Of a stretch of 64,000 nucleotides of DNA, positions 2,797 through 54,760 are shown in pieces. Both the position numbers and the translations under genes were made by a program. The DNA is from a virus: IMG/VR virus record IMGVR_UViG_3300045971_000188; one strand, 5' to 3'. Numbering within the stretch: position 1 is the first letter of the stretch; each line of letters opens with the position of its first letter. A model generated the notes under the pieces. That model saw nothing but the letters and a program-made list of their open reading frames with translations. It searched no databases and was not told where the DNA came from.

Positions 2797-4836
2797 TTAC
2801 ATCATACCTAGTTGTGGTTGTTGCCCTTGAACTTGGGGAGGAGAGAGAGGCATTTCATTTGCGCCTTCGCCTTGTTCCTCTTTGGGGTTCTCTATTGTAG
2901 CCATGAGTGCATCCAATATAGGGGCTAATCTAGGATTAGCAGCAATCAATACTGCAACGTCAGCAACTTGTTTTAAAGTTTCAGCATCCTTTTCTTTTGT
3001 TTTACCTTCCATCTCTTCTATAGTAGCCTTCATAGTTTCTACAGTTAATTGTAGTTGCTCTTTTTGTGCGTCTATAGTTTCTTGATCTGGAGCATTCTCC
3101 AGTTGTTTAGCTATCTCATTCTTACGTGAGAGAGTAGACATTCTTATCATCTCAGCATCAGGTATCATTACTCCATACTTCCTTAGTTCAACTGCTTGAG
3201 CAAACTGAGCATTTTGGAAGGTGATTTGAGTTGGTACATCTGCAATAACTACATCATACTTACCTATACTAACATCGTTGATGAGAGTAGGATCTTCTGT
3301 ACTTTGATCCTCTTGGTTAATCTTAACTGCATGTGGTACAGGTTTACCATTCTCATCTATACCTGTAATCATGAAGGTACGTTCTTGTGTATAGAATCCC
3401 TGTATCAATTTAAGGATTCTCTCAGCAATCATATTACGAGTTCTAAAGAGGTTATCTATAGGAGCTGCTAATTGAATGGCTGATTGATGTACCCTAGATT
3501 GAATAGCTGTACCAGATACTTCAGGACCTTTACCACCTTGGAAGGTTTCAGATACACCTGATATTAATCTAATCAGATCTATTCCTGATGTTACTAGATC
3601 CTTTAGACCCGTAGGGACTTGATTAGGTTCAATCTTAGCTGGAGGAGCTGATCCTTTACGATGCTCTAATACCAACCCTGTTTGTGATCCAACATCTACT
3701 AGATCTTCAGTATCCATGTTTACGAGACTATTCTCCTCTACAATCCATCCAGAGTTGGCAGTAGTGTTTACTACATGTAGAATCTGAGAGTAAACCTTAT
3801 TCAACATCTCCTGTGTTTTGATGAGGTTATCAACTATACCTAGCGTAACACCTCTTCTAAAATATGGAAAGTAAGGGACAATAGTAAAATGATCGTAAGG
3901 GCTCCACTCATCAAAGAGAACAACGTCCCTAGTAGATACAGTCCAGCGGATACGTTTAGTAACTTTCTTAATGATTTCATAACTATTATCCTTAGCAAAC
4001 TTAAGGCGATCTTTAGGCTTCATATCATCAGGTACAGGATAAAGATCACCTGCAGCTGGATCAAAGTAGAAATCCCTGTTTTGTACCTTCCAGAATTGTC
4101 TGTTTACTAGTCGAGCATGTTGTATATCATTAGAGTCTGTATAGAAGGCAGAGTAGTTATTGGTAGTACCAAATTTGTTCCTCTCTTCTTCCAACGAACC
4201 TCTACCAAAGTCAGCTTCTGCAGAGATATTGTTTTCTATTTCTCTCCACTTCTTAAGGCCATAGGTTTCCTTAATGTCATCGAAGGTCATCCAGCTAGTT
4301 ACCATTACATCAGCCCAGTCGTCTGGGTCATAGGATTTAGAGTCTGGGTCTGGCAATACATCTAGCGGGTCTAATGTTTCTATAGCAATATCACCATATA
4401 CATTCTCATTGAAATCCATTTTGACCTCAAAGTATCCTCGTTGTTGGATTAAACCATCGCTAAAGACTTGACTTTCTTTCCATGGAAACTTATTTTGATC
4501 TGTAACGAACATGGTAATCTTGGAGAGTATATCTGATATACCTTGATCATCTTGCTCTCTAGGCTTGTAAGACACATCCATCCTGGATTGGGTTTGGTAG
4601 CCTATAATGGTATTGACTGTAGAGAAGATAATGTTTTCTTCTAGTACTGGTCGACCCATAGCTTCTAAGGTTTGTTTATCTTGGTCAGTCCATTGCCTTC
4701 CGCCACCCAAATAAAAATTCTCATTAATCTTAGCTTGTTGCTGGTAAGATTGATGCCCACGCCGAAGTGCAAGCATATACCTCATCCAAGTCCTATTTGC
4801 TAAATCTCTATCGACTACAACCTGAAGATTACTCAT
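2797..4836 (-). CDS. Portal protein (P22 gp1-like)
   Basis: 679 aa; FYLGGGRQW, DPLDVLPDPD, PYFPYF, GIVDNLIKTQEMLNK and KYDVVI motifs; downstream of TerL. Confidence 0.85.
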   Translation of the reverse strand: MSNLQVVVDRDLANRTWMRYMLALRRGHQSYQQQAKINENFYLGGGRQWTDQDKQTLEAMGRPVLEENIIFSTVNTIIGYQTQSRMDVSYKPREQDDQGISDILSKITMFVTDQNKFPWKESQVFSDGLIQQRGYFEVKMDFNENVYGDIAIETLDPLDVLPDPDSKSYDPDDWADVMVTSWMTFDDIKETYGLKKWREIENNISAEADFGRGSLEEERNKFGTTNNYSAFYTDSNDIQHARLVNRQFWKVQNRDFYFDPAAGDLYPVPDDMKPKDRLKFAKDNSYEIIKKVTKRIRWTVSTRDVVLFDEWSPYDHFTIVPYFPYFRRGVTLGIVDNLIKTQEMLNKVYSQILHVVNTTANSGWIVEENSLVNMDTEDLVDVGSQTGLVLEHRKGSAPPAKIEPNQVPTGLKDLVTSGIDLIRLISGVSETFQGGKGPEVSGTAIQSRVHQSAIQLAAPIDNLFRTRNMIAERILKLIQGFYTQERTFMITGIDENGKPVPHAVKINQEDQSTEDPTLINDVSIGKYDVVIADVPTQITFQNAQFAQAVELRKYGVMIPDAEMIRMSTLSRKNEIAKQLENAPDQETIDAQKEQLQLTVETMKATIEEMEGKTKEKDAETLKQVADVAVLIAANPRLAPILDALMATIENPKEEQGEGANEMPLSPPQVQGQQPQLGMM

Positions 4837-5339
4837 TTGTTACCCTTTTGTAAGTTTATAATTGCGGGAATTACTCGCAGATTGTTTGGTATATGTAGAC
4901 CAGACACAAACTTACCTTGTAATGGTATGATATGATCTACATGAAATTTTATCCCTAAGCAATTAGATAACCTATTAGATAGCTTATATAAAGCCTCTAT
5001 TTGCTTTAAATCAGATTTAGATAGCCAAGATGGAGTTCTTTCTAGCTTACTGGCTCGTCTCTTAGACCACATTGCAACATGCTTTGGCCTAAGATCTTCC
5101 CAATTATTCTTTCTATACTCTTTTTGCCTCTCTCTACATTCACTGTGATTGTTGGAGTAATACTTTTTGCAACTTTCTGATTTCTTACTAGGATTATTTT
5201 TGTAGTATGTTTTTACTCGTTTAGCACAACAAGCCTTACACTTATTATGAAAGCCCCACTTACTTCCCTTATTTCTTGTGAACTCTGTAAATTCCTTTTC
5301 TTCACCACAACAAGTACAAGCTTTAGTCAGTATCAACAT
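4833..5339 (-). CDS. HNH homing endonuclease (paralog of 1143-1577)
   Basis: CTCC/CKAC Zn motifs, TPSWL, FHVDHIIPLQG..VSGLHIPNNLRVIPAIINLQKGN. Confidence 0.8.
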   Translation of the reverse strand: MLILTKACTCCGEEKEFTEFTRNKGSKWGFHNKCKACCAKRVKTYYKNNPSKKSESCKKYYSNNHSECRERQKEYRKNNWEDLRPKHVAMWSKRRASKLERTPSWLSKSDLKQIEALYKLSNRLSNCLGIKFHVDHIIPLQGKFVSGLHIPNNLRVIPAIINLQKGNK

Positions 5340-5365
5340 ATATTATAAGGTATCTCAAAATAAAG

Positions 5366-5394
5366 TTAGAGTACAATAAGTTAGAGTAAGTTCC
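5366..5394 (-). promoter_or_regulatory. sigmaE/AlgU-type promoter GGAACTT-N17-TCTAA
   Basis: Exact consensus in the 56-bp gap between TerL and HNH/portal, oriented with the late genes. Confidence 0.7.
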
Positions 5395-5395
5395 C

Positions 5396-6733
5396 TTAGG
5401 CCACCCTCCAATTCTTCGTATGTAAGGTTTTAATCTTATCCTTAAGGAAATCACTGCGATAAGATCTGGATTTAGGCATTGATATACCGATAGCTAAGTA
5501 TCTGAAAGCATCTGCCCCATCACTTGCCCAATTATGATTTGGTTGGTCCTTAAACATTTGCCCTTTCTCATCCCAAACTTTGGTATAATTACGGAGAGCA
5601 TCTAGACCTGTAGAGCACTTAACCTTATCAAAGTGACATTGAGGTAAGATCATTCTCACTGCATTTATCCCTTCAGATACTGGCAGTTTAGATAGCACAT
5701 TCAATCTAGTGCCTTTAAATAACTCTTCAGCTACTTCATATCGGGTTCTGCCACTACCAAACTCTATATTAACAATGTCATGAGGAAAGTTGTGAGTCTT
5801 GTAGACATAATTCTTAGATTGTAGGACTTTGGCATAATGCTCTATCCCTTTGTTACATGCGGTATAGTAATCTACTACATGGATCTCCTTACCCATAACC
5901 TGAGTGAACCAGATTGAGGTAGCATCTCCACAACCTATATCCCACCAAGTTTCTACAGGGGCTGAAGGATCATGAAGTACTTTCCCTATCTGGCCATTCT
6001 TCTCTAGTTCTTCAATGTGAGAGAGATAGTAGAAGCCTTGAGCATTAGCAGTCCAAGAGTTATAGTATTCTTGTTGTATCAACTCTTCACTCATTCCAGA
6101 GTCCCTTTCTTCCTGAATCATCTCATCGGATACATACCTATTACCCTGCTCATCAAAGGTTTCTAGAACATTATAGTTCTGTACAAACCAATTTTGATTT
6201 TTGATAGCCATTTGGGTTAGATCGTAGAAATGGTTCTTGCCGTTTGTAGAGGAGTTGAAAGCAGCCCAACCATTATTCTCTACTAAGATAGGCCTGATAA
6301 TATTCCATGCCTTAGGGTTTTGGAAAGCAAACTCAGAGAATACACAACCAACTGGATTAGATCCACGTACCTTATCAAACTTATCAGTACCCATGATTTG
6401 AATGACACTTCCATTAGTTAATACTATCTTCATGTCGGTACTATTTTTACTTTGGACTAGAGGCTCTGGAATATGATCTAAGAACTTAAAACCCCCACCA
6501 TCAATCCCATCCCAAATTACCCGTCTACCTTGGGCATACTCAGGGAAGAAGTAGTAATATACCCCTTTCCTCTTAAGAGCTTCTTTGACAGTCAAATTAA
6601 ACATTGTCTTGTCCTTTCCTGCCCTTCTGTGGTATATGGCAATTAGCCTTTTAAACCCTGAGTCTCTAGCAGTCATCAATTCACGTTGATAGGTACGAGG
6701 TTCAAAGCAATAAGGTATCTGTATTATACCCAT
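5396..6733 (-). CDS. terL: Terminase large subunit
   Basis: Walker A-like HRRAGKDK, Walker B VFSEFA, nuclease-domain WWDIG and HNWASDGADAFRY. Confidence 0.9.
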   Translation of the reverse strand: MGIIQIPYCFEPRTYQRELMTARDSGFKRLIAIYHRRAGKDKTMFNLTVKEALKRKGVYYYFFPEYAQGRRVIWDGIDGGGFKFLDHIPEPLVQSKNSTDMKIVLTNGSVIQIMGTDKFDKVRGSNPVGCVFSEFAFQNPKAWNIIRPILVENNGWAAFNSSTNGKNHFYDLTQMAIKNQNWFVQNYNVLETFDEQGNRYVSDEMIQEERDSGMSEELIQQEYYNSWTANAQGFYYLSHIEELEKNGQIGKVLHDPSAPVETWWDIGCGDATSIWFTQVMGKEIHVVDYYTACNKGIEHYAKVLQSKNYVYKTHNFPHDIVNIEFGSGRTRYEVAEELFKGTRLNVLSKLPVSEGINAVRMILPQCHFDKVKCSTGLDALRNYTKVWDEKGQMFKDQPNHNWASDGADAFRYLAIGISMPKSRSYRSDFLKDKIKTLHTKNWRVA

Positions 6734-7341
6734 ATCTCACCTCTACTACATTTATAACCTTTATGCATCTTATAGAGCCCATTTGCTACTCGTAACATAG
6801 TACTATTATCTAAGTTATTGTCTTTGCAGTATTTGTTTAAACCACCAAATAATTCTATAACCTCTCCGGTTGGTGTAGTAACTATAAACAATTTAGATCC
6901 ATTTTGGAATCTATTTATAAATGAATCACGCATTTTTTGTTTTGTCTCTTCAGAGTGCTTACTACCATACCTATGATTTAGTTCTTTTGGCAATCCTTTT
7001 TGCTTACAATTATTGGATATTTTTAATCTAGTTTCTATTGAGGGCTTTGAATTCTTTCCACCTGTTTGAAGATTATACCCATTAGGTGCTAAAGTATTAT
7101 ATTCCTTAATAAAGTACTCTTCTAGATTATTTGCCTCATCTGTTGTTAGATTATCCTTTAATATTTCGTGCTTAAAAGAGTCCCACCCGTACTTATTTAT
7201 AGCGTTATGGAATGCAAAAAGCTTCTTACGATTTGGGTTCTTATGCTGAGTACACCTTCTATTGTAATTATTAGTTTGCCCAATATACTTCTTACCTGAA
7301 GGTGATGTGTGGCAATAAATAAGATACTCTTTATCTTGCAT
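6724..7341 (-). CDS. GIY-YIG homing endonuclease with NUMOD3-like motif
   Basis: LIYCHT..SGKKYIGQTNNYNRR..QH, EE.FI..YNT..PNGYNL, HSEETKQKMR. Confidence 0.85.
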   Translation of the reverse strand: MQDKEYLIYCHTSPSGKKYIGQTNNYNRRCTQHKNPNRKKLFAFHNAINKYGWDSFKHEILKDNLTTDEANNLEEYFIKEYNTLAPNGYNLQTGGKNSKPSIETRLKISNNCKQKGLPKELNHRYGSKHSEETKQKMRDSFINRFQNGSKLFIVTTPTGEVIELFGGLNKYCKDNNLDNSTMLRVANGLYKMHKGYKCSRGEIWV

Positions 7342-7349
7342 TTTATTCC

Positions 7350-7508
7350 TTAGTCAATATACTCTGAACTTAAAAGATGACCCCTAAACTCAGATATGTC
7401 ACATTCATATATCTTATACCCTTTAAACATCATTTCTAATTTATGTTTATTGAAGGAGCCTTTAGTATAAAGTTTACCTCTATTTGCTATGATATAATAT
7501 ACTTTCAT
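7350..7508 (-). CDS. Small hypothetical protein (52 aa, not in ORF track)
   Basis: Hand-translated MKVYYIIANRGKLYTKGSFNKHKLEMMFKGYKIYECDISEFRGHLLSSEYID; fills the gap in the late operon. Confidence 0.5.
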   Translation of the reverse strand: MKVYYIIANRGKLYTKGSFNKHKLEMMFKGYKIYECDISEFRGHLLSSEYID

Positions 7509-7513
7509 TTAGA

Positions 7514-7726
7514 TTACTCTACAGCATTCTTGGCTTTACCTACATTACCACCTACAATATTTATGTACTTATGAATAATAGAGTATACACCCTCTCCCTC
7601 AGGTACTGGTAATACTGCTGATAGCCAAGCGGCTCCACCAGATACTGAGAGCATCAAAGCCCCTAGAGAAGTCATAAGAACCTGGAGATTATTGGTTATG
7701 CTAATTACTTGATCTATGATTTCCAT
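7514..7726 (-). CDS. Small membrane protein, holin-like
   Basis: 70 aa, one long hydrophobic segment, basic C-terminus NVGKAKNA. Confidence 0.45.
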   Translation of the reverse strand: MEIIDQVISITNNLQVLMTSLGALMLSVSGGAAWLSAVLPVPEGEGVYSIIHKYINIVGGNVGKAKNAVE

Positions 7727-8112
7727 TAGGGATTCCTATTATGTTGTTCAAACTGTTGAATATCAGAGGCTGTCTCATGGATTTGAGAGGTAATGAAGGT
7801 ATGATAACCCCAGAGTCCTGCCAAGGAGGTGGTTGCAAATGCAGCACCTAACAACACTGTTTTGATGGCAATGTTTATTGAGGTAGTTAGCTTGGCTAAA
7901 GTAATATTTAGCTCATTCAATCCATCAACTAAAGTAACTATCTTTTTGGTTGTATCTATTTGAAATGCTTCTAGATAAGCCACCCTTCTTTCCAACTCCT
8001 CGGTTAATCTGTGATATCCATCACTACGCCTATCTACTTGTCCAGAACGTCTATCTTCCTCATTCATATTCACATTATAATCCTCTAGGGGGTATAAAGA
8101 TAATAGCTCCAT
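7726..8112 (-). CDS. Membrane protein, holin/antiholin-like
   Basis: Charged DRR repeats, coiled coil, then one TM helix (IAIKTVLLGAAFATTSLAGLWGY). Confidence 0.45.
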   Translation of the reverse strand: MELLSLYPLEDYNVNMNEEDRRSGQVDRRSDGYHRLTEELERRVAYLEAFQIDTTKKIVTLVDGLNELNITLAKLTTSINIAIKTVLLGAAFATTSLAGLWGYHTFITSQIHETASDIQQFEQHNRNP

Positions 8113-8198
8113 AGGGCCTTTTCCCTTTTTGTCTATTAACTATAGGTTACTATCTCCATGTATTTGTCTAGTAACCTTATACTAGTTGTTAAAGTAGG

Positions 8199-8226
8199 TA
8201 AGACCAGTGGTTTGGGGTTAAGTTCA
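8199..8226 (-). promoter_or_regulatory. sigmaE/AlgU-type promoter TGAACTT-N16-TCTTA
   Basis: Consensus match in the intergenic gap upstream of the holin-like genes and TerL. Confidence 0.65.
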
Positions 8227-8229
8227 TTA

Positions 8230-8547
8230 TTACCAGGGTAGGCCAGTTTGAACTTGAGCACGTTGGATATATGCCTCTAACTCACCTAGGGCCTGCTCTT
8301 CATTAGTGTTTGAGGGATTGCCGTCATCATCTACCACAGTAAACATTCCTTTAATCCAGTTTACTACTCTCTCCTCATTTAACTCTTCAAAAGGGATAAT
8401 ATTAGATTTAGGTGGAGCAAAGGCAGTATGAAAGATAGGGGTGTTACTATTAACACCATCATCAGCTGTTATAGTATAGCAGGCGAATATAATTATTCCT
8501 TCTGCATTACGTTGTAGTTCTTTGATGGAGTAGGTATAAGTTATCAT
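8230..8547 (-). CDS. Small tail-fibre-associated protein
   Basis: MITYTYSIKELQR...IPFEELNEERVVNWIK...GLPW pattern typical of genes following fibre genes. Confidence 0.45.
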   Translation of the reverse strand: MITYTYSIKELQRNAEGIIIFACYTITADDGVNSNTPIFHTAFAPPKSNIIPFEELNEERVVNWIKGMFTVVDDDGNPSNTNEEQALGELEAYIQRAQVQTGLPW

Positions 8548-8831
8548 AATAATAGAGATGAGATAGTGGAAAGGTAAATAGGAAGGAAGAGGTTATAGAA
8601 GAGACTGTGGAAATCCCAAGATCTTTTAGTTAAGGTAGCCCACCAAGGCATATTAGCTCTAAGACCAGAAGAGTAGTGTTCTATATATCTATATTCGGCT
8701 TGAGCATGTTCTCTACCTATAAAGAAGATAGCAGAGGCCCAGACAAATAAAAGGGGATAACCCAAGCTCCAGCCTATAGCTAACATTAACAAGGAGAGAA
8801 AGGTGTGTTCTAGTTCAAATAGTAGTTTCAT
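8544..8831 (-). CDS. Small multi-pass membrane protein
   Basis: Hydrophobic; GREHAQAEYRYIE...RANMPWW motif of a family usually adjacent to tailspike/fibre genes. Confidence 0.5.
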   Translation of the reverse strand: MKLLFELEHTFLSLLMLAIGWSLGYPLLFVWASAIFFIGREHAQAEYRYIEHYSSGLRANMPWWATLTKRSWDFHSLFYNLFLPIYLSTISSLLL

Positions 8832-8834
8832 TAA

Positions 8835-11222
8835 TTAAGTCCAGAAAGTAGGTCCAGATTTAGCTTTAGTTCCAAGAGAGGTTGATTGGTAGTGAATATC
8901 AATAAATAAGATAAAAGGCTCATTAGGAGTACCACCAGTTATAGTAGGTATGGTAGTCATTGTGAAGTTTACACCTAATATACCATCTGGTTCTAATAAA
9001 GCAGTATCTAAGAGGGTGGCTGAACCACCTGCAGAGGATAATTGCACTTCTTCTAAACGATGTTGATAACGAGGGGTTGTTGCTATATTTACAGTATTGT
9101 AGGTAGAGGTAATAGTTTTTTCAGCAGAGAAGGTAGCTTGATTATGGCCTTTGGCATAGGTATATGCAAATGTAGCTACAATATTGCCAGAGATAGCAGT
9201 ACCATTATGGGACCAATGATAATGAATATAGAGATCAGTACCCATTGCATAATCATGAGGTAAATGAAACTCTATATCTGCTTTGTCAGTGGCAGAAAAT
9301 GCCCATCGTCTAACACTGCCCCCCATAAAGGCAGAGAGAGTAGGAGCATTAGCCTCTGCAGCATCTACATTGATATTACCAATAAGATCGCGCCAAGGAT
9401 AGGTAGGAGTTATTGAGTCTACTTTAATACCAGTGGTATTAGCTTTATCTAAGATAAGGGTGTTGGCTATGGTAGTTGCACCTGCCAAATAGTTAGCAGC
9501 ACTACCTGACATATAAAGGTTATATCGGCCCGCAGCAGCTGATAAACTACCACTAAACCCATAGTTATTGGTAGCGCCTACCATTGAAGATATGGCAGCA
9601 AAACCATACTGAGAAGTAACAGTAGCAGATGCCCCAAATGTACCTTGACCTGCTGCATAATTATATAAAACAGGTAATGTAAAAACTGCATCTTCAACAA
9701 CATGAGCTGTACGAAATAAATAGGTTTGGGCAGTTACATCAGATCTTATAGTAGGGCTAATATACATCCCATAGGCTGTAGTAGCACCTGTTACACTCCC
9801 ACTTAATAGAAGTCTTTGTGAAACTGCTGAGCTTACTCCTATACCAACATTACCTGTTGAACCAATCTCAAATCGTTGTGCAGAGTTAGTAGAGAGATTT
9901 AAGGTATTGGTTGTACGAGAGTACATCCCATTAGTAGGGATAGTGGCTGAATTAGGGATAAAAGAGTCAGCAGTTACTGGTCCAGTAAAAGTAGGAGACT
10001 CAAGGAAGGCAAGAGTTTTCCTAGCTGCTCCTGTAGTGGTAGTTGCATAAAAAGCATCCGTCAAAAACTCTATGGCTCCTGCTTCTGGAGTGGTTAGAAG
10101 AGGGCCTGAAGTAAGTTTTAGTGGAGCTGTGTTAGCTGTTGCGCTACCCGCTTTTAGGTGCAAGAAAGAGGTAGGTGTAGAAACTCCAATACCTATTTTA
10201 CCACTAGCCTTTATAACCATTTTTTCTGTGCGAGCTCCTCCAGTAGTTTCAGAGGTTACAAATGAAATTCGTTGGGGGACGACACCGGCTGAAGGAGTTC
10301 CATCCACTCTAAAATCAATAGCAGCAGTACCTTGAGTAGCTACTCCATCATATGCAGCAGATAAGAAACTTAAAACTTGATCACTATCCGCGACTATTGT
10401 AGGGGCAGCTAACGTACCTCTAGCCTTAACCCCTTTAAATACAGGACGTGCAGTTGCAGAAGAGTTTGCAGCGATAATAGAAAGTCCAGGAGCACCTGTT
10501 TGAGTGCTGATCACCTCATAATCTGTGGTAATTAACGTGGCTGCAGGTATATTACCATCTGATATGTGGAGAGGGGAAACTGGGGTGTTTAGAACAGTCC
10601 CTATACCTACAGTAGTAAACGCAGCAGTGGCTGGAAACGTACCCTCGGGACCTTGAATACCTTGAGGACCTGTAGCACCAGTAAATCCTCTATCACCTTG
10701 AGGTCCTATATCACCTTGAATACCCTGAGAACCTGTAGGACCTGTGGGACCAGTAGGACCTATATCCCCTTTAACTCCTTGTATTCCCTGAACACCTTGG
10801 ATACCTCTAGGCCCAGTATCTCCAGTAATGCCAGTATCACCCCTGGGCCCTATAGGTCCTTGAGGTCCTGTAGAGCCAGTAGATCCTTGAGGTCCTGTAG
10901 AGCCAGTAGCTCCTATCAATCCTTGAACACCTTGAATACCCTGAGGTCCTATATCGCCTTGAGGACCTTGAGTACCTGTATTACCTTGGACACCTTGATC
11001 TCCCTTTTCTCCTTGGATACCTTGGATACCTTGAATACCTTGGATACCTTGAGGTCCTATATCCCCTTGATCCCCTTTTGCAACTGCTGTGCCAGGTATA
11101 CCTTGAGGGCCCTGTGGTCCTTGAATGCCTTGTGGTCCTTGAGTGGCTGCTGCAATAACAACAGAACTGGATGAATCAGCAATTATTGTGTAACCCTCGG
11201 CACTGACAGAAATATTAGCCAT
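8835..11222 (-). CDS. Collagen-like tail/head fibre protein
   Basis: Long G-X-Y run, then GxVGIG shaft repeats ([23 protein letters not shown]) and a C-terminal globular domain. Confidence 0.75.
10645..11150 (-). repeat. Collagen G-X-Y coding repeats (GPQGIQG etc.)
   Basis: 9-bp periodic sequence such as ccttgaata/ccttggata/ccttgaggt. Confidence 0.9.
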
Positions 11223-11235
11223 TATTTTTCCTATA

Positions 11236-11640
11236 TTATTTAGTTACTTCTTCAGAGGGGAGTAATACACCTTTTACAAATGGAAGAATTTGAGTGGATG
11301 GATCTATTAGTTCTATATCAAAGAGATAGGTGGTATCTGCAGAGAGAGAAGCGGTTTGAGTATCTGTTATTAGGAGTTTGATACCATAGGCTCCTACCAC
11401 CTCACTTCCATCTGATAAGTTGGCAGTACCTGTTATAATTTCTAGGCCACCTTTAGTTTGATCATCTAGATCTAAAATGGGGGAAGAGGAGTAAGAGATT
11501 CTTACTTGCATTCTAGCATGATACCCAGTCAAATTAATGATGGTATTAGATGGAGATAGATAGTAGAAAGTGGGTGTTAGATCTTTACCTTTATCAAACT
11601 TTATGGTGACTGAAGGTGCTCTTAGATCAAGTGTTGGCAT
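11236..11640 (-). CDS. Virion structural/adaptor-like protein
   Basis: beta-rich 134 aa; [13 protein letters not shown]...YLFDIEL...VKGVL pattern common upstream of fibre genes. Confidence 0.5.
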
Positions 11641-12133
11641 TTGAGTAATCCTCTATAACAATATTTAGGGGTAGAGGAGTGGTGGAGTGATCCTCAATTT
11701 CTTCTATTTTCTCTTTTACTTCTAACTCTCTAGGACCATAATTAATAATTTGAATGGTATGAGATACATCCTCCTTTTTCTCTGTGAACATACCTAAATG
11801 TTTTCCAAGGATCTGTAGGGCCTGAATACGGGCAGCATGATTCGATCCATTACCTTCTCGAGTAGCTTCTTTTAGGAGTTGAGAAAGAATTAGTTCTGGA
11901 GTGAGGGATAAGGCTTCTGCTTGCTCCTGTAACTTCAGGGAAATATGAAATTTGATATTCTCTTTTCGGGAGTAGGGGTTATCTGAGGGGTAGTGTTTTA
12001 GACCAGGATTAACTGATTGGTATGCCTTAGGATGGGAGAGAGTGTTTAGATAGACCCGTACATACAATTTTTCTAGAGCATTTAGGCGTGGGGTAGAGTA
12101 GGAAACTACTTCCCCTTCTTCTTTAGTTTCCAT
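11627..12133 (-). CDS. terS: Terminase small subunit
   Basis: ARIQALQILGKHLGMFTEK motif characteristic of phage TerS proteins. Confidence 0.65.
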   Translation of the reverse strand: METKEEGEVVSYSTPRLNALEKLYVRVYLNTLSHPKAYQSVNPGLKHYPSDNPYSRKENIKFHISLKLQEQAEALSLTPELILSQLLKEATREGNGSNHAARIQALQILGKHLGMFTEKKEDVSHTIQIINYGPRELEVKEKIEEIEDHSTTPLPLNIVIEDYSNANT

Positions 12134-12137
12134 AATT

Positions 12138-13346
12138 CTACAACAGTCCTGCTAATTTATTTGGTTTTAGTGCTTTGGGATAATAACTGATTCTACTAAT
12201 GTTTGCTACGCCACCTGAAGATAGGAAGAGGGTGGTGGGGTTGGTAATGCCTGTAAATTCAGTTGGAGAGGATAGGGTATTTGCATTTACTAGGTAAGTG
12301 CTTCCTGATTTAGAGGAGAAGTTATAGTAAAGGGCATATTTAGATGTAGTATCTAAGGTTTGATTAAGCCCACCTAGGTTATAGGGGGCACTAAAAGCTG
12401 AACCACTAGCTGTTATCACAAAAGTCCCTTGATCAGGGTTATACCAAGACAGATTTGTAAAACTTAAGGAGTCTGCAGCTCTAGTTACTGGTGCAGAGGC
12501 TGTTGATCTATAAGAGGATAGATAGTTCTTAGCTTCAAACTGACCTCCCCACATATAAATACCTGAAGTTAAATCACCAGAAAAGGTGTATAAAGGTACT
12601 CTACCATCATAATCAACATTCATTACAGCTATTGCCATTGCCCCTGTAGCACTAGTAGAGGTTGCAGTAGCAGTTAAGGATATTCTATACCAACCAGTAG
12701 CTAATTGGGGGGAGATTGAGTAAGTAAAATTGCCAGGACCCTTATGACCCATGGTCCCATTAGTTAAATTAAAGTTTACCCATGTATCCACACTATCAAA
12801 GCCAGTATTACCAAAGAGTTGGATATAGTTATAGCCTGCAACCTTCACAAAGAAAGAGGTGGTATAGGTAGTACCTGAGGTAACTGATCTGGTTTGTTGA
12901 CCTCTGTGGTATGAGACTGCTCCATTTGGTATATTCTTATCAGCTGCTAAAACACCATCAGGGGCGGAGGCATAATTTGGGGAGATAGTGTTATTATTAA
13001 ATGACCATGCTACATTATCAAATGCACCACTCTGAATAAAATCATTGGAAGTAGATCCTTCGCATAAAAGAGTGATTGGCAGAGAAATAGGTGATCCATC
13101 ACTCAATACATTACTATAAACTCCTGCCCCTACCCTTCTGGCATATTGGTATCTAATTTCATCTACAGTAGCAGTTACTAAAATAGGATTATCACCTGCA
13201 ACTGCATTAGAGGCATAGGCCATAAGAACAGTGTTGCTGGCGCGTGTATTAGTTAGGAGGGTGGTAGAAGGTGTTTTACTAAAATCTAGGTCTAGGGTGG
13301 GATGGGGTGAGGAAGAAAGTAGAACCGTTCTCTTTGGATTAATCAT
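12138..13346 (-). CDS. Head/tail spike-fibre protein with carbohydrate-binding-like domain
   Basis: TRAS, LLCEGSTSN, GWYRIS, YMWGGQFEA..YLSSY.ST...VTRAAD motifs. Confidence 0.55.
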   Translation of the reverse strand: MINPKRTVLLSSSPHPTLDLDFSKTPSTTLLTNTRASNTVLMAYASNAVAGDNPILVTATVDEIRYQYARRVGAGVYSNVLSDGSPISLPITLLCEGSTSNDFIQSGAFDNVAWSFNNNTISPNYASAPDGVLAADKNIPNGAVSYHRGQQTRSVTSGTTYTTSFFVKVAGYNYIQLFGNTGFDSVDTWVNFNLTNGTMGHKGPGNFTYSISPQLATGWYRISLTATATSTSATGAMAIAVMNVDYDGRVPLYTFSGDLTSGIYMWGGQFEAKNYLSSYRSTASAPVTRAADSLSFTNLSWYNPDQGTFVITASGSAFSAPYNLGGLNQTLDTTSKYALYYNFSSKSGSTYLVNANTLSSPTEFTGITNPTTLFLSSGGVANISRISYYPKALKPNKLAGLL

Positions 13347-13347
13347 A

Positions 13348-13962
13348 TTACATCCCTAAGATATAGAGGGTTATGTTCTTAACTGCAGCAGAGGTAGGAG
13401 TAAAGCCGGTAGCAGTTACTAAATAGCCCCATAGGGACGTAGTACCACCTATCTGGAAATCATAATCTAAACCAGTTTGCTGCACATATAGAGTACTACC
13501 AAAGTCAGAGGGACTACCTAAATCTACATAACCTAAATAGATGGTTCTATCACCTGCCGACAGATCCCAGGAGGCTGAGTCTACTAGAGCAGAGGGAGGT
13601 AGGGCAGAGTATAGATGAAGTCTAAAAGAGGTCATACCAGCAGGAACTGGGCCCACATCAACTTTAAGTCTAGTACCTGTTACCCTGATTACACTACCTA
13701 CATTACCTATTAATGGAAGCTCTAAGGCAGCTGTAGTGGAGGTAGAGGGTCCTATAACATCACCTGATAGATAGGCTAAAGAATCGGAGGGACGAGCAAA
13801 AGATTTGGAGACTTTAGTGGTGGTAGAGGTAGGAGAGACTGTAGAGTTAGAAGTATTACTAGATACTAAAGTAACTTGCATCACTCCATTATCATCACAG
13901 CGAGCTATTCTAATGGGAGAGTTATCTGAGTCTTTTTGTAGAGTGGTAGATAGTTTGTTCAT
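13348..13962 (-). CDS. Putative virion structural protein
   Basis: FARPSDSLAYLSGDVIG motif; S/T-rich; late operon. Confidence 0.45.
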   Translation of the reverse strand: MNKLSTTLQKDSDNSPIRIARCDDNGVMQVTLVSSNTSNSTVSPTSTTTKVSKSFARPSDSLAYLSGDVIGPSTSTTAALELPLIGNVGSVIRVTGTRLKVDVGPVPAGMTSFRLHLYSALPPSALVDSASWDLSAGDRTIYLGYVDLGSPSDFGSTLYVQQTGLDYDFQIGGTTSLWGYLVTATGFTPTSAAVKNITLYILGM

Positions 13963-13987
13963 TAATTTTCCTAGGAATAAGGGAGGG

Positions 13988-14019
13988 GGTGTCTACAGCC
14001 CAAGGAGACTATAGACACC
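13988..14019 (-). terminator. Intergenic 11-bp RNA hairpin (attenuator or processing site)
   Basis: Minus strand GGTGTCTATAG...CTGTAGACACC with one G-U pair; no clear U-tract. Confidence 0.4.
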
Positions 14020-14024
14020 TATAT

Positions 14025-14267
14025 TTAAGCTAGATCATACATTATTGTGTCTTTAACATCAGACAATAATCCTCCCATCTTAGTTCCTACTTCAAAGGCT
14101 TTAGATAAGAGCTTGGATAGTTCTATTTCAAATGATTTTTTTACTATAATCAAAGCAGCGTCTTGATCTGCTTGGGTTGTATAATCTACCATACAAGCTG
14201 GTAGAACCATATTAAATAGGTTATCTGTTTCTTCTGGGGTTAAGGTGATATCATGTTTTATTTTCAT
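14025..14267 (-). CDS. Hypothetical protein
   Basis: 80-aa ORF, coupled to neighbours in the late operon. Confidence 0.6.
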   Translation of the reverse strand: MKIKHDITLTPEETDNLFNMVLPACMVDYTTQADQDAALIIVKKSFEIELSKLLSKAFEVGTKMGGLLSDVKDTIMYDLA

Positions 14268-14610
14268 AGGCTGCCTTTAATTCTGCTACAAACAGTTTGA
14301 TGCAGTCTGATCCTCCAGGAGTCTGTAAGAAGACAGGAAGATACTTTTGGACGGAGGAAGAAGAAAGCCATACCTGCTCCTCAGGAGTTAAAGACAAACC
14401 AATTATCTCTAAGATACTCATTTCTTTCTTAGGAGTGTTGGATGCAATAAGCTTTCTTATCTCCGTTAGTTCGTTAGCTAAAGCAGCTTTTACCGCCTCT
14501 TGAATCTGTGTTGATAAATCAGATTGGACTACAGGGACTGTAGGGACTACGGGTTTGGTGCTTGCTTTTAGCGCTTCTAGCTGTTGGGTAAGTCTATCCA
14601 GGTGTGACAT
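14251..14610 (-). CDS. Hypothetical helical protein
   Basis: 119-aa ORF directly downstream of the 314-aa G/N/Q-rich gene. Confidence 0.65.
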   Translation of the reverse strand: MSHLDRLTQQLEALKASTKPVVPTVPVVQSDLSTQIQEAVKAALANELTEIRKLIASNTPKKEMSILEIIGLSLTPEEQVWLSSSSVQKYLPVFLQTPGGSDCIKLFVAELKAAYENKT

Positions 14611-14716
14611 ATTGTTCTCACTTCAAATCAATTAGACCGTATCTAACTTCAGTTGGGGTAGAGGTCATGTAGATAAATTCGAGTTCATCGTCTCCATCTA
14701 CATTGACCCAGTCGCT

Positions 14717-15661
14717 TCACGCTCTTACGTTAGTAGAACTTTGTTGACCTGCAGATCCTGACATAGTACCTAAGTTAACAATGTTAGCTTTGGCAACTTG
14801 TAATTCACTTACCAAAGTGTTTAGCAGTTGGTTAGTTAAGATTGCTTGTTGTTGAGCTTGAGATTGTGCTTGAGCTTGATTGACGACTGTAGTTACTTCA
14901 ACACCTGATTTGGTGAAGCGATGATCACTAAGGGCCTCAGCCAATTTATTTTCAGCTACCACTATCTGTCTGTTGAGAGCAGCAGTGTTAATATCTTGGA
15001 TTAGAGCACGAGTTTTGTCACCATCAGTATTAATAGCTACGAGGGTAGCATACTTACTGTCGATTACGTTTTGGTTGATTGCGTTGGTTTGTGATAATAC
15101 TAAGTTGTTAGTACCTGCAGTTGCATTAACTACACTAACCCCTAAGATACCAGCAGATTCTGCAATGTGAGTGTTGGTAACACCTTGCCCTAAGGCAACT
15201 GCAGTAGCTACTTCACTTACATCTTTAGCTAAACCAGCACTAGTTTGTAGCATAGAGATCTGACCTTGCAGATTCTGTACTTGAGAGATGGTGTTAGCAT
15301 CTGTTACTGCTTTAGTAATTTGAGATTGACCATTTAGATTGGAGATAGTGTTTTGTGCTATAGCTAATTGTACTTGGCCTTCAGCACCCCAAATCTCACC
15401 TTTTAGAGTACCTAGAGTTTGAGAGTTTAAACCATCAGATACAATCCCTTGTACAGCAGCTGTATCTAAAGTGTTGTTATTACCATTTCTATTACCAAAC
15501 ATATTACCATTGTTCAAGAGTGAACCTAAAATCAATCCACCAATCAAACCACCTTCATTATCACCACCAAACAAATTACCCATATTATCACCACCATTTA
15601 AAAGAGAAGAAAGATTACCACCATCACTGGTGGCAGTTGTTGTTTCAGAGAGTACAGCCAT
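14717..15661 (-). CDS. Gly/Asn/Gln-rich long coiled-coil protein with N-terminal glycine-zipper segment
   Basis: GGLIGGLILGSLL, AINTDGDKTRALIQ, QAQAQSQAQQQ; strong AGGAG RBS. Confidence 0.7.
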   Translation of the reverse strand: MAVLSETTTATSDGGNLSSLLNGGDNMGNLFGGDNEGGLIGGLILGSLLNNGNMFGNRNGNNNTLDTAAVQGIVSDGLNSQTLGTLKGEIWGAEGQVQLAIAQNTISNLNGQSQITKAVTDANTISQVQNLQGQISMLQTSAGLAKDVSEVATAVALGQGVTNTHIAESAGILGVSVVNATAGTNNLVLSQTNAINQNVIDSKYATLVAINTDGDKTRALIQDINTAALNRQIVVAENKLAEALSDHRFTKSGVEVTTVVNQAQAQSQAQQQAILTNQLLNTLVSELQVAKANIVNLGTMSGSAGQQSSTNVRA

Positions 15662-15821
15662 ATTTATCTCCTATTGTAGAGAAGGACTCTACGTCCTTTA
15701 GGGATAATCCCCTAAACTATTAACTCCGTGTCAGGCCATGATCAATCCAAACTTCCCTTACTCTTTCCCGCTTCCTTTATCTGTGGCTTACTAATTTTAA
15801 AACTTTTAATACTTTAAATCT

Positions 15822-16094
15822 TTAGGCAGTTTTATACTTCTTAGAAGCATTTTTACTTCTAGGATAACTTCGATTATCTGCTTTGGTTGTTACCTTTAGG
15901 TTAGAGGGAGAGTTATCTAAAGCATTTCCACTCTTATGATCAACATCCAATCCGTCTCCTAACCTTACTTTCCCCTTCTTGGCTAGTCCATATCTAGCTC
16001 TTCCTCGAGCAGCCCTCTTTTTCTTTTGGGTAGGACTAGACTCATATTTAGCTTCTTGCTTATAATCTCTGATGTAGTTAGGGGATGAGGGCAT
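15822..16094 (-). CDS. Small HNH-type protein, first late gene
   Basis: RDYKQE...RAARGRAR...GDGLDVDHK..NALDNSPSNL.V...DNRS. Confidence 0.7.
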   Translation of the reverse strand: MPSSPNYIRDYKQEAKYESSPTQKKKRAARGRARYGLAKKGKVRLGDGLDVDHKSGNALDNSPSNLKVTTKADNRSYPRSKNASKKYKTA

Positions 16095-16123
16095 AATGTT
16101 CTCTTAGTTTATTTCAATAAGGG

Positions 16124-16151
16124 TTAGATTAGGATTAGAGAATTAAGTTCC
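16124..16151 (-). promoter_or_regulatory. sigmaE/AlgU-type promoter GGAACTT-N16-TCTAA
   Basis: Perfect consensus about 30 bp upstream of the first late gene. Confidence 0.75.
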
Positions 16152-16308
16152 ATACCTATAGTTACCTATAATTCTAATTACCTTAATCTATAGGTATATC
16201 CTTTAGTATATTACTTAGTTACTATAATAAAGATCTATAGTAATTACCTTATTATCTTATTAGAGTATATAGTATTATATCCATAGGTACTATAAGGTAC
16301 TAATAGAG

Positions 16309-16345
16309 TACCTATAGATATATAGTTACCTTAGGATCCGGCAGT
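16309..16345 (-). repeat. Conserved promoter-proximal element, copy 1
   Basis: Minus strand ACTGCCGGATCCTAAGGTAACTATATATCTATAGGTA. Confidence 0.75.
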
Positions 16346-16352
16346 ATAGCCT

Positions 16353-16381
16353 TTAGACTATCGAAGTAATACTTTGGTTCC
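16353..16381 (-). promoter_or_regulatory. sigmaE-like promoter GGAACCA-N17-TCTAA
   Basis: Near-consensus ECF promoter 7 nt upstream of element copy 1. Confidence 0.5.
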
Positions 16382-16783
16382 ATTTTAAATTTAAAGTAAA
16401 TTTCTATATTTTTATTTTTAAATTTTAAGAACTGGAATAAGGAACTATAGGTACTACCAATCTTATTTGCTTCGCTACAAATGATACTGGTATAGGACCT
16501 ATAATTACCTTAAAAACTTTAAGGTATTGTCAGCTTCTTCTTTCTCTTTCTTTACTCTTAATTACCGCCCGAAGTGGTCGCTTTCTCTGAAAGCTCAAAG
16601 AGCTTGATGGCAACTGGGAGATGATGGCTAACCTATTGATTTCTATAGGGCTATTGTTTTCTGCTATTTCTATTTTTATATTTTGGTAAATAGAGAGACT
16701 GTGGGTCCGATTATATAGTACTCATTGAATCGACAGGTACCCTCCCTAACCCAATCCCCTACCTTTTGACATATTCCACTTCT

Positions 16784-16848
16784 AGAACTGTTAGAACTAT
16801 TAAAACTCTTTTAACATGCAGAACTGTTAGAAGCTGACAGAGCTGGAG
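16784..16848. repeat. Short 9-bp periodic repeats (AGAACTGTT/AGAACTATT/AAAACTCTT)
   Basis: Five units in exact 9-bp register at 16784-16828 (the fourth, TTAACATGC, degenerate), then two degenerate units. Confidence 0.5.
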
Positions 16849-17613
16849 ACGTAGAGGATTGGCCTGTAGATTGCTACAGATTCTATTGGGAATCGTTATG
16901 TACCGAGGGTTACAGCGGGACTGGGTGTCAGATATCCCTACCAACTCACTTTACTCTTATATACTATAATCCCTTGATTTGGGAGGGCTTGTATTGTCCA
17001 GTAGATCTACTAGAATATGAAGTGTCAGACGGAACATTGTTTGACAAGTTGTTTAGGTAGTTGTTAGAGGTTGTACTCCCTACTCTTTCAACTATAATAT
17101 GTTTGTAGGCAGGACGCTTGCATGTAGTACAACAGGGTAGCTGGTAGGCGGTAACTACTATTGAATGTGACAGATTCATTGATACATCAAAACCCCAAGC
17201 CTCGCTAGGAGTAACATACCATACTTAATTGCTGGTAGTAGGACTAGTAGAGAGATAATATAGGCTGGGTCATACTCTAGTAATGTTTAAAGCATTGTCT
17301 AGGGTATTAGTGGAAACCCGAAAGATTTGTAGGGTTAGAGTGCCGTGGGCGGCATCGTGTTAGGTCTATAGGCATATTGTGTCTACAGTAATACCTACAT
17401 ATTGAGAGTGACTAGGGATTATTTATAACCTTGAAAGCTAGCAATTAACACTTTGAGCAGAAAAAAGGAGCAATATAAATATATTGTAAGTGATAGGAAG
17501 TCTTACACATCAAATGAGGTTAGTTGATAACATACAGCAGATTAGCAAAAAAACTGTAGACTCTAACGGTTTGATAAAAATTCCTAAAGGATGACTTTAG
17601 GTAATTAAATAAA

Positions 17614-17710
17614 AGGTGGGAATGGTGACTAAGAAGTTCACTAGCACTGTAGATATCTAGCAAGTATCTGGCAGTGCTTTCGTGTGTCCACGCTTTCTGT
17701 AACTCCACCT
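17614..17710 (+). ncRNA. Candidate multibranch structured RNA in the early leader
   Basis: Closing stem AGGTGGG/TCCACCT encloses three hairpins, including a 13-bp AGCACTGTAGATA/TATCTGGCAGTGCT arm; G-U pairs favour the plus strand. Confidence 0.35.
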
Positions 17711-17781
17711 AGTTTAATTCTGTAGTATCTTTAATAAGGGTATTATGGAATAAAGACTAACCATTAACTTGGAGTAATAAA

Positions 17782-17928
17782 ATGACTAACAAACAATTGT
17801 TGGAGCTTGCAATTAAAATATATGGGCTCAACGTAAAATTCTACTTTCACAATGTCAACCATAAAATGGTGATATTAGTAGAATCAATAGATAACCAACT
17901 CATTAGAGAAGTAAAATGGATGAAATAA
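17782..17928 (+). CDS. Small early protein (48 aa, not in track)
   Basis: GGAG RBS, ATG; overlaps the next ORF. Confidence 0.55.
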   Translation: MTNKQLLELAIKIYGLNVKFYFHNVNHKMVILVESIDNQLIREVKWMK

Positions 17929-18050
17929 ATTACCCTGAATACCACTACGGTAATGTAGTGTACTATATCTACAAATCAATCCATCTTTGGTATAAAGTAG
18001 ATGGATTGATAGACGGTAAGTTTAGTGAAACCGTTTATATGCCTAGATAA
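17916..18050 (+). CDS. Small early protein (44 aa, not in track)
   Basis: MDEINYPEYHYGNVVYYIYK...; overlaps the previous ORF. Confidence 0.5.
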   Translation: MDEINYPEYHYGNVVYYIYKSIHLWYKVDGLIDGKFSETVYMPR

Positions 18051-18053
18051 TAC

Positions 18054-18073
18054 TTACCCATAGGTACTATTAG
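18054..18073. repeat. 20-bp direct repeat TTACCCATAGGTACTATTAG, copy 1
   Basis: Identical to 19812-19831; intergenic. Confidence 0.85.
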
Positions 18074-18307
18074 AACTAATAAAACTCTAGTAGTATCTAT
18101 CAATAAGTGCTATTTCATAGATACCTAGTCCTAGCTATTAGGACTTAAAAGATAATAGATAACCTTGAGAAAGTTATTAGGTGAAACCGTAAGATCCACT
18201 ACACCCCTCTAAATATTAACCCTTAGTCCCCTTAGCCTTATAGGTTTAGGATACTAACAGATAATATTTATTATCACTTTATTAATCCTTAAATTGGAAG
18301 GTGTATC

Positions 18308-19012
18308 ATGGCACAAACAGACAAACAAAAAGCGGTGGCAATGGCAGCTATTGACCTTAAGTTGACAGAACTCAATAAGGCAATCAACACCATTCAAGGT
18401 AATGTTCATGACGTTATGATTATGACTTGCATTTATGCTTGGCAAAATAATGATGCTGACATTGTATCTAAGGTTCTCAACAACTTAACAGGAGTTAAAG
18501 GTTCATTCAGGGTTGAAAGTGTAGCCTACTGGTTCAAACAAATAGCAGGTATGAACTGTACTTTCAACGAAAAATTGGATAAGTACACAACCAAGTTTTG
18601 CAAGGCTGGTGAGTATGCTAGCAGTCATGGTGTAATCTTTAGCTTTGACAAAGCACATTTAGCTGTCCTTAAACTTGACAAAAACAGGTTCTGGAAGATA
18701 GCCCCTATCACTATAAAGGAACTGAAACTCCAAGATGATATTGCTAAAGTTACAGGCAATGCTGAGATACAACTGGCCCGTAGTTTTGCCGCTGGTCACA
18801 TTGATCAAGCTGCCTTATCTCTCCATATTGCCGGCATGGTAGCTCGCATTACTAACCTTGCTAACACTGGCAAGACTAAAGAATGGCTGGAAGAGTTTTA
18901 TACTCAGCATCCAGAACAAAAGCCAGCAGTTACTCTTGACCTTGTAGAAGCTGAATTGGCTGCCCTGGCTAAAGCTGAATTGGAAGCTGAGCTGGAAGAG
19001 TTGGAGGCTTAA
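18308..19012 (+). CDS. Conserved early phage protein of unknown function
   Basis: GGAAGG RBS; helical; pattern NDADIVSKVLNNL...RVESVAYWFKQIAG resembles early proteins of T7/SP6/PaP3-like phages. Confidence 0.6.
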   Translation: MAQTDKQKAVAMAAIDLKLTELNKAINTIQGNVHDVMIMTCIYAWQNNDADIVSKVLNNLTGVKGSFRVESVAYWFKQIAGMNCTFNEKLDKYTTKFCKAGEYASSHGVIFSFDKAHLAVLKLDKNRFWKIAPITIKELKLQDDIAKVTGNAEIQLARSFAAGHIDQAALSLHIAGMVARITNLANTGKTKEWLEEFYTQHPEQKPAVTLDLVEAELAALAKAELEAELEELEA

Positions 19013-44506: not shown

Positions 44507-45061
44507 ATGGGGGAAGCGTTTGAAGTAGCATCTAGTTATATGTATAAACTATTGGACTACTCAGATAAAAAGGAGGAGATACCTGATGATGTACTAGCTA
44601 AGGAGAGAAGGATCTTTTCTTTCTGTAAGGTAGGTCCTAGGGCTGGCTACTTTAGGTTAGATCCAATGAGCAAGTTGGTAAGTGCAGATGTATTGTATAT
44701 GCTAACCTCTACCCTACCTGCCAAGTATATAGCTGCTAAATTTGGGATGTGTGAGAGGAAAGTTAGAGCTATTAGATGTGGAGAGACGGAGGAGTGGTAT
44801 TGGGAGTATCTATTGATCAGACGATTAAAAACGATAATTCGAGCTACCTACAGACTCTCCAAGAAGACTACTAGCTCTGCAGCCTATTCCCTTTCTAAGT
44901 TGGTAGGTATAGATAAGTATGAAATACTACTCTATGCTTCAGGTAAATATAAGTTAGTCAGACTTCGTAAGGATATAATTAAACCTAAAGAGTATGATGA
45001 ACTAGTTAAGAATAAAACATTAGATATTATATATCCCATTAAACAAATAGAATTATTATGA
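44507..45061 (+). CDS. Putative HTH DNA-binding protein; frame open upstream to 44417
   Basis: PAKYIAAKFGMCERKVRAIRCG helix-turn-helix pattern. Confidence 0.55.
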   Translation: MGEAFEVASSYMYKLLDYSDKKEEIPDDVLAKERRIFSFCKVGPRAGYFRLDPMSKLVSADVLYMLTSTLPAKYIAAKFGMCERKVRAIRCGETEEWYWEYLLIRRLKTIIRATYRLSKKTTSSAAYSLSKLVGIDKYEILLYASGKYKLVRLRKDIIKPKEYDELVKNKTLDIIYPIKQIELL

Positions 45062-54296: not shown

Positions 54297-54760
54297 TATT
54301 CTTTTCCTATATAGGGGTTATGATGTATACTATCTCTACTGAATAAGAAGGTAATATACTCCTCGGGAGACATAGTACTAACATCTTTAGTTGATAGGGG
54401 TTTAGAGTCTGATGAGGAGGGTATAGTTCCATCTAGCCCACTGTAATCACTGGTACTCCCATCCATAGGAGAAGTAGGTGATACTGAAACTGGAGATGGA
54501 GCAATACCCTTTAGTACACTTGGTTTGCCAGGATTATCCTCTCCATTGATGGGTTGTCTATCATTCCATCCAGGTAATCCCAGAGGCTCTCTACTACCAG
54601 TTGATCCCTGATTTGTATCCCAGGCTGGACTTTGTTGGTATGATGAGCCACCATAACTTCTAGATACTATTCCTAATCCTGGCGTCTCATCGGTTTGGTT
54701 GTTTTCATTTACTGATGAACCATAGTATTTATCTTTATAATTAGAGTCTCCTAATCTCAT
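54296..54760 (-). CDS. Putative internal virion protein
   Basis: Ser/Pro/Gly-rich, coupled. Confidence 0.45.
   Translation of the reverse strand: MRLGDSNYKDKYYGSSVNENNQTDETPGLGIVSRSYGGSSYQQSPAWDTNQGSTGSREPLGLPGWNDRQPINGEDNPGKPSVLKGIAPSPVSVSPTSPMDGSTSDYSGLDGTIPSSSDSKPLSTKDVSTMSPEEYITFLFSRDSIHHNPYIGKE

Follow-up and report, generated by a model that had tools for sequence, protein, structure and literature searches.

Sites of the sigmaE/AlgU promoter type before the late genes of freshwater podophages without a recognisable sigma factor

We analysed a 64,000-nucleotide stretch of viral DNA (IMG/VR record IMGVR_UViG_3300045971_000188; hereafter the window) and focused on a set of short promoter-like sites on the minus strand, before and within its late genes. 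The window makes up about 96% of a 66.9-kb genome, as judged from exact protein matches to contigs of 66.7-66.9 kb. The late genes lie in two minus-strand arms (1-16094 and 45497-64000) that encode capsid, portal, TerL, TerS-like, tail fibre and virion proteins. The plus-strand arm (18308-45282) encodes a primase-helicase, a family A DNA polymerase, an exonuclease, a gp2.5-like single-stranded DNA-binding protein (SSB) and a class II ribonucleotide reductase, together with an ATP-grasp/amidoligase/amidotransferase cluster of the phiEco32 type. In GenBank the closest record is MW202615.1, an uncultured podophage with a circular genome of 65,237 bp that came from a Florida spring; its TerL is 76.5% identical to that of the window, and the record has no sigma annotated. 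A near-identity DNA search with 12 kb of the window against 50,697 phage records gave no match, and the relatives were gathered by protein, via the first late gene and the portal. Whole contigs were compared for G001 (66.9 kb, with terminal repeats), G005 (63.5 kb; CheckV completeness 100%), G006 (52 kb) and three fragments. The search with the first late gene recovered 46 loci, most of which belonged to other phage types without a gap upstream of the gene and were set aside.

A preliminary description of the window had proposed four minus-strand sites, here called A to D, as promoters of the extracytoplasmic function (ECF) sigmaE/AlgU type, and all four read exactly as it gave them (Table 1). 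Sites D and A stand in tandem before the first late gene, which encodes an HNH-like protein of 90 amino acids (aa). Site C is followed by genes for proteins of 128, 70 and 52 aa, by a GIY-YIG homing endonuclease gene and by TerL; the gene next to it has no homologue in IMG/VR. Site B had been described as lying in a 56-bp gap before the portal gene; the gap is there, and the next gene is a 168-aa endonuclease VII/HNH gene, with the portal gene only after it.

The E. coli sigmaE consensus consists of GGAACTT, a preferred spacer of 16 nt, TCAAA and a discriminator of 5-6 nt (PMC1312014). Measured against it, the sites have a GGAACTT-like -35 box with an invariant AAC and a TCNAA-like -10 box, 16-17 nt apart, and the boxes also equal the AlgU consensus as the preliminary description quotes it. 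The likeness to promoters of E. coli RpoE and P. aeruginosa AlgU covers the GGAACTT -35, the 16-17 nt spacer, the TCNAA-type -10, which usually follows a G, and the short discriminator (PMC1312014). RpoE and AlgU serve a bacterial envelope-stress regulon, whereas here the predicted promoters precede virion, packaging and lysis genes of a virulent-type phage. The -10 boxes do not follow the sigma70 pattern: all of the 19 sites collected read TC(T/C)(A/T)A plus a variable base, without A-11 and T-7. Nor do sites A to D resemble the promoters read by phage sigmas, namely the phiEco32 late promoter tAATGTAtA and the late promoter GTAAtg-N16-aCTA of Salmonella phage 7-11 (PMC4281155, PMC8948821). 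A repeated, conserved promoter element before late operons is nevertheless present, as it is in phages with their own late sigma.

The preliminary description had proposed that the sites be scanned for against shuffled controls and looked for in related phages, and both comparisons came out in their favour. The pattern GAACTT-N15-18-TCTNA had 8 matches against 1.20 expected, a count that none of 100 shuffles reached. The stricter pattern [GT]GAAC[TC][TA]-N16/17-TC[TC]NA matched 8 times on the minus strand and not once on the plus strand (1.04 and 0.78 expected, respectively, from 500 dinucleotide-preserving shuffles), and a pattern built only from the sites of the relatives matched the window 5 times (0.5 expected). 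In late intergenic DNA, which amounts to 1,359 nt, there were 4 sense-oriented matches against 0.022 expected (Poisson P ~1e-8). All 8 strict matches were on the late strand, and 7 of them lay in sense orientation within the late arms (16094-1 and 64000-45497); the remaining match (28113-28140) runs antisense in the replication region and probably represents background. A scan of positions 1-20000 for sigma70-type promoters found 53 against 61 expected, that is, no excess, in agreement with the earlier statement that the late genes are without good sigma70 promoters. Perfect sigma70 promoters had also been reported elsewhere in the window, and two were confirmed.

At the head of the late operon, the box pair (T/G)GAACT(T/A)-N16/17-TC(T/C)NA was found in seven genomes, and every genome with a gap upstream of the first late gene has it. 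The distance to that gene is 33 nt in G002, about 40 nt in MW202615.1, 116 nt in G001/G004, 156 nt in G006 and 163 nt in G005, and two pairs stand in tandem in the window and in G003 (31 and 201 nt). MW202615.1, G002 and G003 thus each have a proximal orthologue of site A, 31-40 nt upstream of the orthologous gene, and distal sites placed like site D occur in G003, G001/G004, G005 and G006. Spacers and flanks around these boxes are unrelated from genome to genome. Site B likewise has an orthologue at the same place in locus L067, where the portal is 91% identical; both boxes are preserved there, and the spacer between them is wholly different. Because the spacer is unconserved and the two-box geometry is fixed, the reader would be of the sigma type and not a single-subunit polymerase. 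Two features not selected by the search pattern were also kept among the 19 collected sites: in 17 of them the second base upstream of the -35 box is an A, and a G usually stands directly before TCTAA. Portal identity among the phages that carry the motif falls to 58%, and their GC content ranges from 31 to 44%.

The 38 portal loci, several of which are near-duplicates in IMG/VR, contained 28 sense and 7 antisense matches, many of them at gene boundaries (before TerL, before the portal gene and just after it). A further site lies within the portal gene itself, at the same codons in about 20 of the 38 loci. There the codons GAA, GGT and CTA, the last a minor leucine codon, stay together in about 16 of 23 distinct versions, compared with 6.8% expected from codon usage, and the neighbouring synonymous sites vary freely. 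Judged from these codons, synonymous-codon constraint clearly appears to hold the portal-internal copy in place.

Site D can also be placed by its surroundings. A leader of 37-39 bp with short palindromes is common to three leftward promoters on the minus strand (16290-16400, 21210-21320 and 45340-45450). Two copies (~21303 and ~45433, minus strand) are preceded by a consensus sigma70 promoter, TTGACA-N17-TGnTATAAT, pointing antisense into plus-strand genes. The third is preceded by site D, whose GGAACC and TCTAA align with the sigma70 -35 and -10 boxes; in this alignment an A residue lies 7 nt past the TCTAA. Since its boxes align with those of two sigma70 promoters before the same leader, site D would occupy a true promoter position. 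The same region contains the repeat CTATAGGTA, of which there are seven exact copies, six of them clustered at the late control region (16153-16453) and the middle/late junction (45310-45368); one directly adjoins the -35 box of site A. The repeats are specific to the window phage and its closest relative. Because they are absent from more distant relatives, CTATAGGTA looks like an operator-type site for a phage-specific DNA-binding protein.

Taken by their boxes, their enrichment and their conservation, the sites are very probably functional late promoters of the ECF sigmaE/AlgU type (group 4). Their coordinates are collected in Table 1, together with those of other features of the window.

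Table 1. Promoter-like sites and other features of the window and, where stated, of its relatives.
Feature	Position	Strand	Description
Site D	16353..16381	-	GGAACCA-N17-TCTAA; distal late-operon site, 259 nt before first late gene, ~230 nt upstream of site A
Site A	16124..16151	-	GGAACTT-N16-TCTAA; proximal late-operon site, 29 nt before ATG of first late gene
Site C	8199..8226	-	TGAACTT-N16-TCTTA; in 117-bp gap
Site B	5366..5394	-	GGAACTT-N17-TCTAA; in 56-bp gap between TerL and endonuclease VII/HNH gene
Portal-internal site	3603..3631	-	TGAACCT-N17-TCTAA
Candidate internal site	14059..14087	-	GGAACTA-N17-TCTGA; 97 nt before gene 13348-13962; pattern match only
Candidate internal site	54402..54430	-	GGAACTA-N17-TCTAA; sense, second late arm, 106 nt before 509-aa virion gene (52767-54296); pattern match only
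First late gene	15822-16094	-	90-aa HNH-like protein
Endonuclease VII/HNH gene	4833-5339		168 aa; first gene after site B
184-aa helix-turn-helix protein	44507..45061	+	in every relative (five genomes compared); middle/late junction; candidate regulator
234-aa early protein	18308..19012	+	adjoins control region; winged-helix-like core; kept in MW202615.1, G005 and G006
Homing-endonuclease-type genes	4833-5339, 6724-7341, 1143-1577, 24660-25756, 36942-37415, 39208-39678		several missing at same place in relatives
CGATA..GGTCGG..N..CCGAAA element, window	1590-1660	-	upstream of capsid block
CGATA..GGTCGG..N..CCGAAA element, MW202615.1	~12700-12760		upstream of capsid block
CGATA..GGTCGG..N..CCGAAA element, G001	~51370-51440		upstream of capsid block
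CGATA..GGTCGG..N..CCGAAA element, G002	~100-180		upstream of capsid block
tRNA-Gln (anticodon UUG)	1650-1723	-	between scaffold-like gene and capsid block

We searched the phage for a factor that could read these sites. No sigma region 2/4 or RNA polymerase domain was found by Pfam in 30 larger and 55 further open reading frames (ORFs; at least 45 aa) of the window, nor by PHROGs or NCBIfam in the 55 further ones, and TIGR02937 had no match among about 90 window ORFs. These searches, together with those of two complete relatives, uphold the earlier statement that no phage sigma or RNA polymerase is visible. In six-frame searches, MW202615.1 and G005 gave nothing with TIGR02937 at E up to 10, where control genomes responded, and MW202615.1 gave nothing with PF04542 and PF08281 at the same limit. 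The 2.9 kb of the genome outside the window, read from an identical contig, contain five virion genes, which have no sigma domain and no Pfam family on record. One encodes an SU10-type adaptor and one a 131-aa protein; two of the products we take to be capsid-decoration-like from their own sequences. A DUF5856 protein encoded in the same 2.9 kb is presumably Dps-like. The preliminary description had combined ECF sigmaE/AlgU-type promoters with the lack of a recognisable phage sigma, a reading that stands, and had offered as a fallback a phage ECF sigma encoded outside the window, which does not: the missing 2.9 kb hold virion genes, and no such sigma was found in MW202615.1 or G005.

Two conserved proteins were considered as hidden sigmas, by PDB profile searches, AlphaFold models, Foldseek, VIA-align, hhalign and Atlas look-ups, and both were rejected. 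The model of the 184-aa helix-turn-helix protein (pLDDT 74) had only weak, generic helix-turn-helix fold matches, and hhalign against a sigma gave a probability of 0.8%. For the 234-aa early protein (pLDDT 81), the best PDB matches were weak and of the MarR type (E >0.7), and none was sigma-like. The idea that the gene for the latter is absent only from the sigma-bearing relative described below was dropped, as a 169-aa protein with a similar central stretch (by eye) occupies the same position there. The 2420-aa virion protein (45497-52759, minus strand) matches phrog_2206, but only at profile positions 227-542 of 3406 (E 1.2e-12), a stretch that in N4-type virion RNA polymerases is N-terminal and lies outside the polymerase; neither a Pfam family nor a sequence match in PDB was found for the protein, and no polymerase domain was detected in it.

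One relative encodes a sigma of its own. G001 (IMGVR_UViG_3300045994_000147) belongs to the same clade, has the same first late gene and retains the ECF-type site before it; it differs from the window phage by a FliA-like sigma (TIGR02937 E 1e-32; L049:1441-2160, that is, G001 25516-26235), which has no homologue in the window, and by sigma28 promoters. A perfect sigma28 promoter, TAAAGTT-N11-GCCGATA (66204, minus strand), lies about 25 nt upstream of the ECF-type site that heads the late operon, and a second perfect one (25247, plus strand) precedes the sigma gene itself. In this lineage the portal-internal ECF-type site is lost. The FliA-like sigma is nearest to clusters of Pseudomonadota, the phylum in which sigmaE/AlgU occurs. 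From the sigma, its promoters and the loss of the portal site it follows that the choice of alternative sigma for the late genes is evolving within the clade, and the members without a sigma look like a state in which the sigma comes from elsewhere.

Because the window phage and its close relatives encode no recognisable sigma or RNA polymerase, the most economical inference is that a sigmaE-like ECF sigma of the host reads the late promoters, and we consider this about an even bet. The motif is constant among phages whose portals differ by up to 42% and whose GC content ranges from 31 to 44%, while CTATAGGTA is lineage-specific, which fits a slowly evolving reader. An unrecognised phage factor would be the other kind of reader: a very divergent sigma, or a protein that retargets the host RNA polymerase as T4 MotA/AsiA or gp55/gp33 do. 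We regard this as rather unlikely; candidates for the role would be the 184-aa helix-turn-helix protein, the 234-aa winged-helix-like protein or a small unassigned ORF. It would agree with the strategy of phiEco32 and 7-11, which bring their own late sigma and share the ligase cluster and the SU10-type adaptor, and phiEco32 gp36 and T4 gp55 show that such sigmas can be hard to recognise. The 184-aa family, present in all five genomes compared and encoded at the middle/late junction, and the CTATAGGTA repeat immediately next to the -35 box of site A, a placement expected of an activator site, point in the same direction. Yet three libraries of hidden Markov models (HMMs) and the six-frame searches of the relatives gave no sigma region 2/4 signal, the models of the 184-aa and 234-aa proteins lack a sigma-like fold, with hhalign of the former against sigma at 0.8%, and a non-homologous reader would have to converge on the -35 box, the -10 box and the spacing of sigmaE. 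In addition, promoters of phage sigmas vary among related phages (tAATGTAtA versus GTAAtg-N16-aCTA), but the present motif stays the same throughout a deep clade.

In phage N4 the late promoters are of a weak sigma70 type and are activated by the SSB of the phage, and the sites could in the same way be weak promoters for the host sigma70 holoenzyme with an activator. The gp2.5-like SSB of the window phage, the TTGAAC that forms the -35 box in most relatives (a 4/6 match to TTGACA) and the alignment of site D with two consensus sigma70 promoters before the same leader all speak for this; we nonetheless hold it to be improbable, since the TCTAA box lacks A-11 and T-7, the two most important sigma70 bases, in every site, the -35 of the window sites is GGAACTT, and conservation centres on GAAC and TCTAA, the ECF determinants. 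That the sites are no promoters at all, being chance matches or sites for packaging or replication, appears highly improbable. The pattern does have a background rate, as seen from strict matches that are intragenic or antisense (28113-28140 and several in relatives), but against this reading stand the enrichment, the strand bias and the constant placement ahead of the first late gene in seven genomes, as well as the two-box geometry, which is kept with free spacers, and the equivalence of site D to true sigma70 promoters.

If the host sigma is indeed the reader, the late genes would be transcribed by host core RNA polymerase with a sigmaE-like ECF sigma. Two tandem promoters, sites D and A, would head the late operon, and further sites would restart transcription ahead of the lysis/TerL block and again ahead of the endonuclease/portal block, and probably also from within the portal gene. 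Late timing may come from release or accumulation of the host sigma during infection, and phage DNA-binding proteins may contribute by acting at the CTATAGGTA repeats and at the common leader beside sites A and D. In its fuller form, the proposal is that a clade of 63-67-kb freshwater podophages without a sigma-class factor runs its virion, packaging and lysis genes on host sigmaE/AlgU, one lineage replacing it with a FliA-like sigma and a sigma28 promoter; we advance this tentatively, at slightly below even chances.

Several points weigh against a host sigmaE reader. A sigma that is normally sequestered needs activation or release from its anti-sigma, and no phage gene for this step was found; a 55-aa MucE-like protein (20545-20712), which the preliminary description had suggested as a trigger, found no support and has no detectable counterpart in four relatives. 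The boxes were compared with the sigmaE consensus of E. coli and with that of AlgU, and the host itself may have no sigmaE of this specificity. Very divergent phage sigmas, such as T4 gp55 and phiEco32 gp36, the latter a sigma without region 4 (PMC4281155, PMC8948821), could escape HMM and fold searches. Specificity could also be conferred by the two conserved phage DNA-binding proteins, and many small ORFs are without an assigned role. Finally, the sites were gathered by pattern, so that conservation of the core is partly built in, and the near-duplicate loci mean that the portal counts overstate independence.

Other features of the genome were noted beside these. Free-standing genes of the homing-endonuclease type are many (endonuclease VII/HNH, GIY-YIG, three HNH-AP2 and HNH_5). 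A non-coding element, CGATA..GGTCGG..N..CCGAAA, is kept upstream of the capsid block in four genomes, where it may serve as a structured 5' leader or as a weak promoter of sigma28-like type. In the window, a tRNA-Gln gene separates the scaffold-like gene from the capsid block. The genes that flank the candidate internal site at 14059..14087 have no counterpart in the relatives. Between the late and early arms, a stretch of some 1.8 kb (16500-18300) contains tiny ORFs only and has no Rfam match; it may hold a regulatory RNA, an origin or the genome ends. In MW202615.1, the capsid gene is apparently split by an insert that bears an endonuclease gene (12800-15042, L001), which suggests an intron, and the annotation of this record looks unreliable there and at 4700-7585. 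A contig of Halopseudomonas pachastrellae with 61% GC (NZ_FOUD01000001.1, 98318-105406; L064) contains a capsid gene 66% identical to that of the window, probably from a prophage with a related head module. A search of GTDB genomes for the host gave only this distant, high-GC prophage, which we did not count as host evidence.

To our knowledge, known late switches are of three kinds, relying on an RNA polymerase of the phage, on a sigma of the phage, or on activators and antiterminators that act on the host sigma70 enzyme. The nearest known systems belong to the second kind. Phage phiEco32 has related gene content and makes its late switch with an alternative sigma on host core polymerase, but its promoter is a single element without a -35 box, its sigma is phage-encoded, and no counterpart of gp36 or gp79 was detected in the window phage. 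Salmonella phage 7-11, also a podophage, is alike in having a two-box, ECF-style late promoter with a 16-nt spacer (PMC8948821), and it shares the phiEco32-type ligase gene cluster and the SU10-type adaptor with the window phage. It differs in encoding an ECF-like sigma, gp47, of which no equivalent is recognisable in the window phage, MW202615.1 or G005, and in the sequences of the boxes. Two-box ECF-style late promoters have therefore been described before, in phages that supply the sigma themselves. The present case departs from them in combining the canonical sigmaE-type consensus with genomes without a recognisable sigma, across a conserved clade, and in a sister lineage that has captured a FliA-like sigma. 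Our literature searches, which covered subscription journals to a limited extent and are weak evidence of novelty, found no report of a lytic phage running its late genes on a host ECF sigma.

The use of a host stress sigma for late genes would, if true, add a further late-switch strategy in a lytic phage lineage, and it would explain why a sister lineage acquired a sigma of its own. Being few in number, clearly delimited and conserved, the promoters are open to tests in vitro even though the natural host is uncultured. Mutants of the host sigmaE or its anti-sigma would be predicted to alter phage susceptibility, and the yield of phage and the production of particles would be tied to the state of the host envelope and its stress pathway.

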